Source: a virus
Lineage: Duplodnaviria; Heunggongvirae; Uroviricota; Caudoviricetes
IMG/VR virus record: IMGVR_UViG_2740892229_000013
Length of the DNA stretch: 38,746 nucleotides
Direction: 5' to 3' (one strand)
In this document: one piece after another, positions 4,854 through 8,960 of the stretch
How positions within the stretch are numbered: the first letter of the stretch is position 1
Layout of the letters: the number at the start of each line of letters is the position of its first letter
Notes under the pieces: generated by a model
Databases searched by the model: none
The model's input: the letters and a program-made list of their open reading frames with translations, nothing else
What the model was told of the DNA's origin: nothing
Program-made: the position numbers and the translations under genes

Positions 4854-5504
4854 TTACGCTTTGAAAGCATCAGCTAAATAATTGTAGAAATCATTTTTAA
4901 TGAAGCGATATTGCTGAGTACCAGCTTTCGCACTCCCAGCTCCTTTGACTTTTTCAACAAGTCCAAGACGTTCGCAAAGATTGATCAACTGGTTGGCTTG
5001 AGTATAGCCAGCGTCCAATTTAATTTCACACGCTTTTTTAGCTTCATTCATTAAATCGAAAACAGCGCCATTGGTGAACGTGTCGATCTCGTCGTTAATC
5101 ATATCGATTAAAGCGAATACACGAGATCCTGACATATCAGCGATGGAATAAACGCATTTACCAGATTTAATTGATTTAACCAGATAAACCAGTTTTTCCA
5201 GAGAATAACTATTAGTCATTGCATCACGGAAAAATACTTCTGGCGCTTGTTTGCTTGCTTTAATCGCATAGTAGAAAACAGAGCATAATTTTTCGTCTTC
5301 TACTGCGTTTACGACGTTGTTGATGAAGTAAGCAAGTTTAGTGGTCGCAGCTTGCATATTTGCTTTGTCTGCTTTAGTGTGCGTACCATTTTTATAATGT
5401 TCGTTATATGTTTGAGTTGCCAGATCTGCTTTATCGCGCAGCTCGTCGGATACAATAGATGCAGCTTCAATGATGGACTTTTTAGAAATGATAATGTTAG
5501 CCAT
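4854..5504 (-). CDS. Hypothetical protein (216 aa), AT-rich gene
   Basis: ORF track. AAGGA RBS and its own promoter. 17 G+C in 60 nt at 4861-4920. Confidence 0.8.
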   Translation of the reverse strand: MANIIISKKSIIEAASIVSDELRDKADLATQTYNEHYKNGTHTKADKANMQAATTKLAYFINNVVNAVEDEKLCSVFYYAIKASKQAPEVFFRDAMTNSYSLEKLVYLVKSIKSGKCVYSIADMSGSRVFALIDMINDEIDTFTNGAVFDLMNEAKKACEIKLDAGYTQANQLINLCERLGLVEKVKGAGSAKAGTQQYRFIKNDFYNYLADAFKA

Positions 5505-5569
5505 GATAATTTTTCCTTATGTAAATTTAAAATTTATTGTCGTTAGCGTCTTCGCTTTCGACGAGTTCA

Positions 5570-5597
5570 ATTATCGATACGCGAAAAAAGATTGCAA
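5570..5597 (-). promoter_or_regulatory. Candidate sigma70 promoter TTGCAA-N16-GATAAT with A/T-rich UP-like tract
   Basis: Minus-strand -35 at 5597..5592 and -10 at 5575..5570. A/T runs at 5600-5625 lie upstream. Confidence 0.55.
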
Positions 5598-5743
5598 GTG
5601 TTTTTTTTAAATTTTTTGCAGGGATGAAAGTCCTAGAAATAAAAGCGAGATCGTCGAAGGTGTTCCCTAAATAAATAATCGATTCCGGCTTTCGACCTTA
5701 TATATATTTAGGTTATTTGATTTGTAGATATAAAGAAGTGATG

Positions 5744-5775
5744 TGAAAAATAATAACCGGACTTAGCCGGTTATT
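5744..5775 (-). terminator. Rho-independent terminator (minus strand)
   Basis: AATAACCGG (5752-5760) / CCGGTTATT (5767-5775), 6-nt loop. The A-run at 5744-5750 gives a U-run on the minus strand. Confidence 0.85.
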
Positions 5776-5787
5776 AACCTTATAGAT

Positions 5788-6096
5788 TTATTGAACAGAC
5801 TCTACAGCCTTACGATTGGTGTCAAATAGCGCATCAACGAACTGTGCCGATGACTCGCTAGATTCGCAATCCAACATTGCCCGTTCTTCATTTGCCACTT
5901 TCTTACACAGTTCCACATTCTCACCTATCGCTTTTCCTGCTTTTACGGCTGCCGAAAATTGATACATGCAAACTGATACATTCTGAGACGTTGAGCACAC
6001 GTCATTCATCAGCGACTGAATGACAGGCTTATAGTCCATTGCATTTGCCGCAACTGAGCAAAGTAAAAATAATGGTGGTAACAATATCGATTTCAT
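5788..6096 (-). CDS. Secreted (periplasmic) Cys-containing small protein (102 aa)
   Basis: N-terminal signal peptide MKSILLPPLFLLCSVAANA with an A-x-A cleavage motif. Five Cys in the mature part. Confidence 0.75.
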   Translation of the reverse strand: MKSILLPPLFLLCSVAANAMDYKPVIQSLMNDVCSTSQNVSVCMYQFSAAVKAGKAIGENVELCKKVANEERAMLDCESSESSAQFVDALFDTNRKAVESVQ

Positions 6097-6099
6097 AAC

Positions 6100-6624
6100 T
6101 CAAAAAGGCAAAATTCGTTCAACCCAATCGAACAAAACAACTATTTTTCTACCGTTCTCGACACGTAGTGTAACCTGACAAGCATCTGCGCCTGCTGACA
6201 CCCCCTCAATTTCACGGCCATCCGCCATGTACACCCTTATAGATTTGTTTGCTTTGTAGGCTTGGTTGCAAATTGCAAAAAAATCGCGGCGTGATGGCCG
6301 ATTATCGACATAATCAGGGTGAACTGTTAGTCGACCTTTGAAATCGTGAGCGATACTGTCAACCACACCTGATTCAATTGTACTAATGCGTTCAAGTGGG
6401 AGCCTTATACGATTTTCTTTGTCAAAAGGGGCTGGGCAAAGGTCAACTTTGTTACGAGATGGCATGAGGCCATAAACGTACATGCAAAACGCCTGGCCAT
6501 CTTCGAGAGTGACCCTTACAGGAATTTGTTCTCTGCGCCAGAACATCAGTAGTTTTTCAACGTTAGTGTAATCTCGCGGCCAGAGTTCAGCTTGGATACC
6601 GTAGGTAATATCTTTGGTTGTCAT
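6100..6624 (-). CDS. Hypothetical cytoplasmic protein (174 aa); possible tandem Sm/SH3-like (Rof/Hfq-like) barrels
   Basis: Track ORF 6100..6702 trimmed to ATG 6624 (the rest overlaps the upstream gene). Two segments, IPVRVTLEDGQ...IRLPLERISTIE and IRVYMADGREIEG...VVLFDWVERI, fit the Rof/Hfq pattern from memory. Confidence 0.7.
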   Translation of the reverse strand: MTTKDITYGIQAELWPRDYTNVEKLLMFWRREQIPVRVTLEDGQAFCMYVYGLMPSRNKVDLCPAPFDKENRIRLPLERISTIESGVVDSIAHDFKGRLTVHPDYVDNRPSRRDFFAICNQAYKANKSIRVYMADGREIEGVSAGADACQVTLRVENGRKIVVLFDWVERILPF

Positions 6625-6628
6625 GTCA

Positions 6629-7093
6629 TCACAGAGTTGTTGGCAGAATGTCGATGTCACCAGAATTGCTGGTGAACACCCTGAACGCTTTTGTGTCTCC
6701 ATTCTTCAGAGTCGTTTCTCGCTCTTGACGAGCGGGGTTTAGAGCACATAAACCTGCACCTTCAAGAGATGCACCCACAATTAATTCTCCGGCATTTAAA
6801 TGGAAAGTCGCTTTTTCGCCTGTAGCCAGTTTTGCGACAGTTTCGCCATTGATGAAAATGGAAGCATCACATCCAGCTCCTACAAAACCTGTGTCTCTCA
6901 TTACCACCAACGTAGCTGGCGCTGCGCTTTGATACTTGAACACTTTGGCCTGCGGTGCTGGTTTGGCGTCATGGATTGATATTGGACGTGATTGGCACGC
7001 GGTAAGCATCAACACTGGTAACGTTAGTAGAGGGAGAAGCGAGTATTTCATGTTAGTTTTAGAACAGAAAGTGAACAGTATGGGAGACTTCAT
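6629..7093 (-). CDS. Outer-membrane-type lipoprotein (154 aa; alternative start 7051)
   Basis: Lipobox L-T-A-C with Gln at +2. GGGAG RBS before ATG 7093. Beta-rich mature domain. Confidence 0.8.
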   Translation of the reverse strand: MKSPILFTFCSKTNMKYSLLPLLTLPVLMLTACQSRPISIHDAKPAPQAKVFKYQSAAPATLVVMRDTGFVGAGCDASIFINGETVAKLATGEKATFHLNAGELIVGASLEGAGLCALNPARQERETTLKNGDTKAFRVFTSNSGDIDILPTTL

Positions 7094-7119: not shown

Positions 7120-7398
7120 TTATTTTAATCTGCTTAATAGCGTTTCGAGATCTTCCTTTGTCATATTAGAGTTCTCATAGATACGCATGATTTTCTCACG
7201 AGTCTTAGCGGAAGCCCCGACAGAAGATATAACCTTGTCAAAGTCGGCCATTGTCAATTGTTCCAGAATGGTATTAATGACTTCAGCCTTAGACATTTTG
7301 ATATTTTTTTCTTTTAGTTTCACTTGAAACTTTCCAAGTTTGTCATTGGCCTTATCAGACAATGCTACCTGACAGTAAGTTGTTTTCTTTTCACTCAT
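7120..7398 (-). CDS. Hypothetical protein (92 aa), N-terminal ribbon-helix-helix-like
   Basis: ORF track. The strand-helix-helix pattern TTYCQVALS / DKANDKLGKF / SKAEVINTILEQL is a pattern-level call only. Starts 2 nt after the helicase stop. Confidence 0.65.
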   Translation of the reverse strand: MSEKKTTYCQVALSDKANDKLGKFQVKLKEKNIKMSKAEVINTILEQLTMADFDKVISSVGASAKTREKIMRIYENSNMTKEDLETLLSRLK

Positions 7399-7400
7399 AA

Positions 7401-8960
7401 CTAATCTCGTTTCAGAACTCCAAAATCGAATGCTCCATCAATAGGCAATACACCTTCTGCAAAGCCAGGTGTGGTGTCGATGATGTGTTTTCGCTCATAA
7501 GAGTGAGACAACAGGTATTTGTTGCTAATGTCAATGAAATCAGTGATAAAACACACGTTTGCCTGATTTTTTTTGGCTCGTAAGCCACGACCGACACGCT
7601 GTCTCATTTCAACTTCTGCTTTCCCACCACCAGCAAGAATGACCGCACCAACGCTTGGCACATCAACACCAACATCCAGAATAGTCGAGCCTATTAAAAC
7701 ATCTATTTCACCAGACGCTAAACTGTTCAGCTTTGCTTGCCTTGTCGTCTGGTTAGATTCCCCATAGATGAAATCAACTCTAAGACCTGACTCCTTCATC
7801 ATCTCCATCAGGATTTGCCCGTGGCGTTTAAGACGAACCAGAGTCATGCAGTTGAGTGAATGTTGCTTATAAAGCAATGCCTCGCGCACTATGGCCTCGT
7901 TACGTCCCAAATTATACACGATCCCCAACTGATAAGCCTTTTGGTAGGCGGTGCTCATACCAACTCTAAAATTGAGATGTTTGTTGGCAAGTTCGGCCTT
8001 GATTCTGGCCTCGTCTGGCTTGTAGGCAACTTTATGATAAAGGAAGTACGGCTTTGCCAGAATGCCTCGATCAATCAGGTACTTTTCTGTGACTTTAATT
8101 TCAATTCGCCCGGCCACCGCCATCAGGCGCATGTTGGCTTCCGTCGAATCCTTCATGAACGGCGTGGCTGTAAGCGCCAGACGATAGTCTGCGTTCACAC
8201 ATAATCTGGCGATGTCATAGAAATTTGAGCCTGAAGACTCATGCGCCTCTTCCAGAATAAGAAGAGAGACACTTGAAAGGAAGCGTTTCACCAACTCCCG
8301 ACGTTTGAGGTGGTAGCTTTTCTTATCTGGTGTTGCATCGCGTGGTGGTTCTTCGAGGAAACTTGCAAGAGTTTGAACTGTAGCGACGTTGATATGTCGT
8401 GATACCTGGAACTCACCCGAGCCAATGACTCCAACCTTTTGGTCTTTTAACCACGGTTCGCCATTTTTGGCGCGGTAGTCGATGGATCTCTGGAAGTTTT
8501 CGGCCATTTGAAACATCAGAACAGAGCGGGTTGTTAAAAATAATGTCATTCGACCGATACGTGCAGCTGCTTTGCAGGCAACATTAGATTTCCCGCCACC
8601 AGTAGCGATCTGCGCAATCATCATTCCCTCTCGAACCAGTGTTTCCACAGTCTGATCCTGATACGCATAATCAGGATTGTATGGGAATGGGTTAACCGCC
8701 GGATTTGGTTTTCCAAGCGCCGGGGCTTTGTCTTTGCGGATATGAACACATTTGATGCCCGCCTTGTTCAAGTTCGCCGCTACAGGCTTGGCAAAGCCTG
8801 CAGGGAACGAGTTTTTACTCCAGTTGAACATTGTGCTTGTGCCCTTCCAGTCGCCAGTCTCGACTTCGTAGCTCAACATCTGTTGCACCAGTTGCTTTAC
8901 CTTGTCATCTGCGCCAGAAATAAGCGCATTAACTGCGTTAGATACAATCCGAACAGTCAT
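7401..8960 (-). CDS. SF2 (DEAD/DEAH-type) DNA helicase, 519 aa
   Basis: Motif I ATGGGKS, motif II LEEAH, motif III TATP, motif VI QRVGRGLR, all read in the translation. Confidence 0.9.
   Translation of the reverse strand: MTVRIVSNAVNALISGADDKVKQLVQQMLSYEVETGDWKGTSTMFNWSKNSFPAGFAKPVAANLNKAGIKCVHIRKDKAPALGKPNPAVNPFPYNPDYAYQDQTVETLVREGMMIAQIATGGGKSNVACKAAARIGRMTLFLTTRSVLMFQMAENFQRSIDYRAKNGEPWLKDQKVGVIGSGEFQVSRHINVATVQTLASFLEEPPRDATPDKKSYHLKRRELVKRFLSSVSLLILEEAHESSGSNFYDIARLCVNADYRLALTATPFMKDSTEANMRLMAVAGRIEIKVTEKYLIDRGILAKPYFLYHKVAYKPDEARIKAELANKHLNFRVGMSTAYQKAYQLGIVYNLGRNEAIVREALLYKQHSLNCMTLVRLKRHGQILMEMMKESGLRVDFIYGESNQTTRQAKLNSLASGEIDVLIGSTILDVGVDVPSVGAVILAGGGKAEVEMRQRVGRGLRAKKNQANVCFITDFIDISNKYLLSHSYERKHIIDTTPGFAEGVLPIDGAFDFGVLKRD

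Follow-up and report, generated by a model that had tools for sequence, protein, structure and literature searches.

What is the function of the protein encoded on the minus strand between positions 6100 and 6624 of IMG/VR record IMGVR_UViG_2740892229_000013, a 38,746-nucleotide (nt) stretch of DNA from a virus of the Caudoviricetes (hereafter the window), and on which molecule does it act? An earlier note on this DNA took the product for a possible tandem of Sm/SH3-like barrels and, with low confidence, for a modulator that binds Rho or RNA. We report here that by sequence it belongs to the FljA family of repressors of phase-1 flagellin, that it is predicted to consist of two Hfq-like Sm barrels, and that its gene is under strong purifying selection on phage-plasmids, including those of hosts without flagella. 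It may act as a translational repressor of messenger RNA (mRNA), with fliC as the likeliest target. Over 4 kb the surrounding region shares 98.7% identity with Escherichia phage CMS-2020a (107.6 kb), and it is approximately 79% identical to Salmonella phage SSU5; the window therefore derives from a phage-plasmid of the SSU5/pHCM2 type.

Family membership of the product

The 174-amino acid (aa) protein of the earlier note, which left the strand unstated, is a real open reading frame (ORF), and both of the segments quoted for it are found in the translation of the minus-strand ORF at 6100-6624 (MTTKDITYG...DWVERILPF*, 174 aa). An alternative reading of 200 aa, from an ATG at 6702, runs into the upstream lipoprotein ORF (6629-7093), and the N-terminal extension that it adds is absent from all homologues aligned, the N-termini of which line up at M-T-x-x-D-I-T-Y-G; because the extension overlaps the upstream gene and is unsupported by homologues, the 174-aa reading is the correct one. 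A chance ORF can be dismissed, since there are 79 homologous clusters at 90% identity and since the proportion of nonsynonymous differences (pN) between alleles lies well under that of synonymous differences (pS).

On sequence grounds the product belongs over its full length to the known FljA family, which the earlier note did not recognise. Pfam family PF03614 (Flag1_repress, "repressor of phase-1 flagellin", FljA) matches it from end to end, with aa 5-171 aligned to positions 1-170 of the 170-position profile (E 1.5e-84, 282.4 bits against a cut-off of 24), and also matches all 27 of the aligned relatives; phrog_1444 matches with E 1.9e-100. FljA proteins stop phase-1 flagellin synthesis; among their relatives are FljA(z66), encoded by the linear plasmid pBSSB1, and fliC repressors of E. 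coli, FlkB being an example. The primary papers on FljA mechanism are reportedly those of Bonifield & Hughes 2003, Yamamoto & Kutsukake 2006 and Aldridge et al. 2006.

The orthologue in SSU5 shares 83% protein identity and is named 'putative repressor of phase 1 flagellin' in GenBank and 'transcriptional repressor' in RefSeq; the basic identity of the protein is therefore not new, the family being known and already so annotated in SSU5. We note that the RefSeq start of the SSU5 orthologue (NC_018843.1, locus L001, 5876-6403) is an internal Met, giving a coding sequence at 5957-6403 of the locus and a product of 148 aa, whereas the SSU5 ORF, like those of all homologues, reaches an ATG (at 5876, for 175 aa). 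Because it is annotated from the internal Met, the RefSeq product lacks the invariant ITYG..WPRDY motif.

An exhaustive HMMER scan over 1.84 billion cluster representatives returned only 26 related clusters, and the FljA family is therefore very small. The scan reached chromosomal Salmonella FljA (P0085, named FljA by NCBI, 179 aa) with E 1.2e-25 and 36% identity, in an alignment that runs from end to end (query 1-172 on target 4-173); a word-indexed protein search, profile included, did not reach chromosomal FljA, and no NCBIfam model matches either the FljA-like protein or Salmonella FljA. The two proteins are similar in size (174 aa and 179 aa) and have in common an N-terminal (I/V)(T/S)YGxxAExWPRDY motif, a PSRRD(F/Y)F helix and an FDWVxRI C-terminus. 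Identity to Salmonella FljA varies along the chain: it is 73% in the N-terminal motif, 23.5% in the first of the two predicted barrels described below and 47.7% in the second. The C-terminal domain is the most conserved part of the family, with D114, F116, G141, G145, D166, W167 and V168 unchanged even in comparison with Salmonella FljA. The motif at aa 5-19 is invariant or nearly so across the phage-plasmid clade, yet it is modelled with low confidence. The gene differs from Salmonella fljA in that it has no linked second flagellin gene or invertase, is part of a phage-plasmid helicase operon and is conserved in hosts that lack flagella, and its product has a strongly diverged N-terminal barrel.

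A second clade of the family, also on phage-plasmids, has diverged deeply (33-46% identity) and is found at the same place behind the helicase gene; it includes Klebsiella pneumoniae plasmids of rep_cluster_2469 (L005 3995-4543 and L008 2570-3118) and L011 3378-3917. Its members lack the WPRDY motif and have ESERNL or EKERDL instead, a sequence replacement that may mark a different target specificity. In a 171-aa protein labelled Gemella morbillorum (P0079), the first ~85 residues are identical to those of the enterobacterial family and the remainder shows no relationship; it is probably the product of a chimeric or contaminated assembly.

A predicted tandem of two Hfq-like barrels

An AlphaFold2 monomer model built from 46 homologues has a predicted local distance difference test score (pLDDT) of 82.9 and a predicted template modelling score (pTM) of 0.79, and contains two helix-plus-five-strand units with the topology of Sm proteins. 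The first has a helix at 20-31 and strands at 36-40, 45-54, 59-63, 72-76 and 80-85, and the second a helix at 113-124 and strands at 128-133, 138-147, 150-154, 160-164 and 168-173. The first segment of the earlier note corresponds to strands 36-40 to 80-85, and the second to helix 113-124 with strands 128-133 to 168-173. Residues 1-14 have pLDDT below 50 and the inter-domain linker is poorly predicted; the linker is variable in sequence, shows a dip in pLDDT at approximately aa 100-110 and carries a conserved P-S-R-R-D-F-F motif at its end.

In Foldseek searches the best 50 matches are all Hfq, with target-normalised TM-scores of 0.66-0.85. Scores are higher for the full model than for its N-terminal half alone with 7uwy_A (10.3 vs 7.2), the WYL domain of DriD (9.2 vs 6.4), MJ1435 (7.9 vs 6.2) and YaeO (7.6 vs 6.2); these four must therefore align to the C-terminal half, and both halves are thus Sm-like, the assignment of the C-terminal half being drawn from the score differences, not from a separate search. 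The modelling thus supports a predicted architecture of two Hfq-like Sm barrels in tandem.

At the sequence level, Pfam Hfq (PF17209) matches aa 120-162 with E 6.8e-4, and at 19.6 bits this match stays under the gathering score of 27; a check against LSM and Hfq profiles, suggested together with the earlier reading, thus finds Hfq in sub-threshold form. Similar sub-threshold matches to Hfq are present in 6 of 27 relatives, and matches to LSM in 2 of 27. A family profile run against the sequences of the Protein Data Bank (PDB) retrieves Hfq-like chains only (E 0.1-0.8), and a PDB sequence search with the FljA-like protein gives no matching chain. When each domain is aligned by hhalign with a small set of three Hfq sequences, the result falls short of significance, and the link to Hfq therefore rests on the fold searches together with the weak Pfam and PDB profile matches. 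An internal duplication at the level of sequence was considered and rejected, as hhalign pairs the N-terminal and C-terminal halves over only 14 columns (IPVRVTLEDGQAF with KSIRVYMADGREI; probability 8%); in the model, the internal repeat is structural only.

The likeness to Hfq extends to an N-terminal helix followed by five bent strands in each predicted half, to the β1-loop-β2 pattern (VSIYLVNGIKLQG compared with IRVYMADGREIEG) and to action on RNA, which for FljA is taken from the literature. There are also differences. The FljA-like protein would have two barrels per chain, whereas Hfq has one barrel in each subunit of a hexamer, and the Sm2 motif YKHAI, which forms the proximal uridine pocket of Hfq, is replaced by FDWVERI; the Sm2 equivalents are F-D-W-V-E in the C-terminal domain, in a global alignment of low confidence, and R-L-P-L-E-R-I in the N-terminal domain. 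Furthermore, the FljA-like protein would be a specific repressor and Hfq is a general chaperone.

These comparisons bear directly on the reading proposed earlier, in which a Rof-like protein binds Rho and modulates Rho-dependent termination in connection with an A/C-rich tract at 47-513. Of that proposal the tandem Sm-like barrels stand, with Hfq as the best analogue, and 'RNA-binding modulator' is consistent with the FljA family; its Rof component does not survive. PF07073 (ROF) gives no match at E<=10, a search that, given the speed filters of HMMER, excludes only matches stronger than approximately E 0.1. YaeO is mid-ranking among the structural matches, and more than 20 structures, with Hfq at their head, fit the model better, as do WYL domains and many LSm proteins. 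Rof/YaeO, the Rho inhibitor of PF07073, is moreover a single domain of approximately 84 aa, and another activity is known for the family to which the FljA-like protein belongs. The tract, A/C-rich and G/T-poor, is real and visible at 47-410 on the plus strand, with no tandem repeat detected inside it, but 5.6 kb separate it from the gene, and it is part of another transcription unit, outside the operon that ends at the terminator at 5751-5776, and we see no link to it. A Rof-like Rho binder is thus hardly credible.

WYL domains are also among the structural matches, and the protein could be imagined as a WYL-like sensor whose Sm-like barrels bind a small ligand, either nucleic acid or nucleotide, and pass a signal to a partner, for instance the helicase, with which it shares an operon and whose core resembles those of defence proteins such as PbeA. 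We consider this very unlikely. The fit to Hfq is tighter (root mean square deviation 1.2-1.7 Å over the full core, compared with 2.1-5.2 Å for WYL matches), and neither the FljA-like protein nor its relatives match the WYL profile PF13280. The WYL domains of DriD, BrxR, PafBC and CapW are fused to helix-turn-helix (HTH) DNA-binding domains; the FljA-like protein has no fused HTH or effector domain, the two predicted barrels accounting for the whole chain. No PADLOC family matches the FljA-like protein.

FljA has been known genetically for decades and, with no PDB sequence match, has no solved structure. We found no paper that links FljA to Hfq or to the Sm fold in the literature searched, where the tandem Hfq-like architecture of the family appears undescribed. 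The predicted architecture points to residues for mutation, namely D114/F116, G141/G145, D166-W167-V168 and the N-terminal WPRDY motif.

Distribution and selection

The FljA-like protein is encoded in 831 plasmid records by tblastn, carried by Klebsiella (341), Escherichia (229), Enterobacter (92), Yersinia (62), Salmonella (60) and other genera. In 822 of these records at least 80% of the protein is covered by one uninterrupted tblastn piece, and 793 are non-mobilizable; among the records listed, most are approximately 105-113 kb in length. Carriers include pHCM2 of S. Typhi and pMT1/pFra of Y. pestis. The neighbouring gene of phrog_1513 is present in 815 records with the same spectrum of genera; on this evidence the FljA-like gene behaves like part of the core genome of the group.

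In Nei-Gojobori estimates between nine alleles, pN is 0.10-0.26 and pS, which is saturated, is 0.55-0.79, Klebsiella-Klebsiella pairs included, and this indicates strong purifying selection on the FljA-like gene. Among Klebsiella-borne pairs, Kp79/Kp65 gives pN 0.177 vs pS 0.788, and Kp65/Kp61 gives a ratio of nonsynonymous to synonymous substitution rates (dN/dS) of 0.26. The order helicase, 92-aa gene, cargo, FljA-like gene and phrog_1513 is kept in the eight relatives examined, which come from E. coli, Salmonella, Klebsiella and Y. pestis and include a Klebsiella plasmid group in which the protein is only 33-36% identical. The Y. pestis pFra/pMT1 plasmid (NZ_CP151612.1, L006 4001-4528) has an intact homologue that is 80.6% identical, with a dN/dS of 0.20 against SSU5, and the synteny of helicase, 92-aa, FljA-like and phrog_1513 genes is unchanged there.

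Klebsiella pneumoniae has no flagella and Y. pestis is non-motile. With approximately half of the carriers in flagella-less hosts, the canonical target is thus absent or silent there. The bulk of the family consists of orphan, strongly conserved phage-plasmid core genes, non-flagellated hosts included, a situation that also appears undescribed in the literature searched. It suggests an unrecognised target, and the element is a tractable system for finding it.

One way to account for this distribution is that the protein is the same kind of Sm-fold mRNA repressor, whose primary or ancestral target is either a phage-plasmid mRNA, for example one from the early or maintenance region, or a conserved host mRNA unrelated to flagella; repression of flagellin would then have arisen later as a speciality of chromosomal copies linked to fljB, and the protein studied here would be inactive on fliC. 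ORFs that are intact in aflagellate hosts, purifying selection between Klebsiella-borne alleles, a position that is kept even where the protein is highly diverged, the lack of a partner flagellin, a family diversity that lies mostly on the ~105-113 kb phage-plasmids and an N-terminal domain strongly diverged from that of Salmonella FljA all favor it. However, no candidate target was found, Rfam is empty, and the downstream intergenic region yields the terminator alone as a conserved structure. The N-terminal motif (73%) and the C-terminal domain (48%) are well conserved with Salmonella FljA, which suggests a shared type of ligand, and movement of phage-plasmids between motile and non-motile hosts may sustain selection for action on fliC. 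We therefore regard a non-flagellar primary target as possible but somewhat doubtful.

A broader evolutionary version can be put forward just as tentatively: the FljA family might in origin be a core post-transcriptional regulator of SSU5/pHCM2/pMT1-type phage-plasmids, its primary target not being flagellin. The target would then be a conserved host mRNA or an mRNA of the element through which its maintenance, its replication or the lytic switch is controlled, and Salmonella FljA would be a domesticated copy recruited together with a phage-type invertase. If true, this would explain the intact gene on Klebsiella and Y. pestis plasmids.

A proposed mode of action

What the analysis shows is family, predicted fold, operon, distribution and selection; that the protein binds RNA and represses translation, and which message it acts on, we infer. 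We give an even chance to the proposal that the protein is an FljA-type mRNA-binding translational repressor, with fliC as the likeliest target and at least one further target. Expressed as part of the operon that begins with the helicase gene on a phage-plasmid of the SSU5/pHCM2/pMT1 type, it would, by analogy with FljA and with Sm-fold proteins, bind a single-stranded mRNA leader close to the ribosome-binding site, so that translation would be blocked and the message secondarily destabilised. For this E. coli element the likeliest target would be the host fliC mRNA, and carrier cells would be flagellin-poor. The further target, of which there would be at least one, might be an mRNA of the element itself, the prime suspect, or a conserved host mRNA; it is suggested by the lack of a partner flagellin, by the divergence of the first barrel and by the intact state of the gene in aflagellate hosts. 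Binding to the leader is proposed because the tandem Hfq-like fold suits an RNA model and because no DNA-binding domain is detectable.

The literature is split on whether FljA binds DNA or RNA, and the predicted tandem Hfq-like architecture offers a structural rationale for the RNA-binding, translational model. With FljA(z66), fliC mRNA accumulates and FliC protein is absent, and FljA-like regulators are described as preventing the translation of fliC mRNA (PMC2652032); the mechanism of FljA is also treated in bioRxiv 10.1101/2025.10.27.684867.

Several points tell against the proposal. Some recent publications treat FljA as a transcriptional repressor that binds DNA at a promoter (PMC9368917, PMC10399903), the first of them naming the fliC promoter. 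The fold comes from predicted models, and the match of its C-terminal half from differences between scores, and sequence similarity to Hfq falls under every curated threshold. Specificity may differ from that of FljA, since the N-terminal Sm domains are so little alike. Neither the window nor the eight relatives have a flagellin gene within 4-6 kb of the FljA-like gene, and a tblastn search with FliC against 50,697 phage records matched no SSU5-like genome; the gene is thus an orphan, unlike every characterised FljA locus. Finally, Klebsiella (341) and Yersinia (62, with Y. pestis in all three of the examples listed) make up 403 of the 831 carriers, and because approximately half of the carriers are in aflagellate hosts, fliC is not the sole selected target.

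If the protein were instead a DNA-binding transcriptional regulator, it could act at the host fliC promoter, as some papers report for FljA (PMC9368917), or at the conserved regulatory region of the element, and the strongly conserved non-coding segment at 5504-5750 lies just downstream of its operon; the database names 'transcriptional regulator' and 'transcriptional repressor' point the same way. Against this, Pfam gives PF03614 and the weak Hfq match only, with no HTH, ribbon-helix-helix or other DNA-binding domain, the entire predicted fold consists of two Sm barrels, and in the case of FljA(z66) the fliC message is present in the absence of FliC protein (PMC2652032). A DNA-binding regulator is, in our judgment, unlikely.

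Returning to translational repression, the window was searched for RNA elements on which the protein might act. A candidate fliC-like target is AAGTCATTAATACCA (7269-7283, minus strand), 15 nt inside the 92-aa gene that are identical to codons 3-7 of the E. coli fliC gene. It has the sense orientation of the operon and gives E 0.003 in a blastn-short comparison with the K-12 fliC leader and first codons. None of the eight relatives keeps this match, and because it is not conserved among them it is most likely due to chance. At E<=1, Rfam gives three matches near the gene, all at noise level. The downstream intergenic region contains a terminator and a promoter-like site only, and RNAalifold applied to this conserved region returns the terminator as the only supported structure.

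If the phage-plasmid copies do silence flagellin, carriage would alter motility, H-antigen expression, recognition by TLR5 and sensitivity to flagellotropic phages.

The operon and its surroundings

The FljA-like gene is the fourth of five genes in a minus-strand operon (Table 1), with two divergent ParB-like genes upstream. The lipoprotein stop codon lies 4 nt ahead of the FljA-like ATG, and the ATG of the fifth gene, which is missing from SSU5, lies 3 nt past the FljA-like stop. The terminator that closes the operon is kept in all relatives.

Table 1. Coordinates of the operon, of its terminator and of the regions of the FljA-like protein in the window.
Feature	Coordinates	Strand	Description	Basis
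Gene 1, DEAD/DEAH-box (ResIII-type) helicase	7401..8960	minus	519 aa; phrog_16	Pfam ResIII, DEAD, Helicase_C
Gene 2, conserved protein	7120..7398	minus	92 aa; phrog_1466	no Pfam family above threshold
Gene 3, putative lipoprotein	6629..7093	minus	154 aa; phrog_890	
Gene 4, FljA-like protein (coding sequence)	6100..6624	minus	174 aa; ATG at 6624, TGA stop at 6100-6102	ORF and translation
N-terminal motif	6568..6612	minus	aa 5-19 (DITYGIQAELWPRDY)	alignments, identity by region, pLDDT
N-terminal Hfq-like Sm domain (predicted)	6370..6567	minus	aa 20-85; helix 20-31 and five strands	
Inter-domain linker	6289..6369	minus	aa 86-112	model and alignment
C-terminal Hfq-like Sm domain (predicted)	6103..6288	minus	aa 113-174; helix 113-124 and five strands	
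Gene 5, protein with signal-peptide-like N-terminus	5788..6096	minus	102 aa; phrog_9536	
Intrinsic terminator	5751..5776	minus	TAATAACCGG-CTAAGT-CCGGTTATTA, then a T-run	terminator scan, alignment, consensus fold

Gene content between the 92-aa gene and the FljA-like gene varies among the relatives, other members carrying one to three different small genes in the upstream slot, and the slots that flank the FljA-like gene look like a hot-spot for the insertion of morons around a fixed gene. The helicase is syntenic in all eight relatives examined. Its core matches PADLOC models of PbeA (E 6e-23), probably reflecting generic helicase similarity and not a defence system; membership of the operon in such a system was considered and rejected, since the FljA-like protein has no PADLOC match and the helicase matches generic cores only.

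The 92-aa protein directly follows the helicase in all relatives. A ribbon-helix-helix in its N-terminal half, an impression gained by eye, finds no support in Pfam. Between the operon terminator and the phrog_1513 gene lies an intergenic region of approximately 300 nt (5504-5750, minus strand) that contains the invariant blocks AATATATAAGG, ATTTATTTAGG(G/C)AACACCTTC and TTTCTA(A/G)GA(C/G)TTT, and a promoter-like CTTG..N..TCGATAAT. In an alignment with loci L001-L007 these blocks are kept, even in comparison with a Klebsiella plasmid whose flanking proteins are only ~35% identical. Since this non-coding DNA is more conserved than the neighbouring genes, it probably holds operator or promoter elements for a regulator, and the 92-aa protein could be the regulator that reads them.
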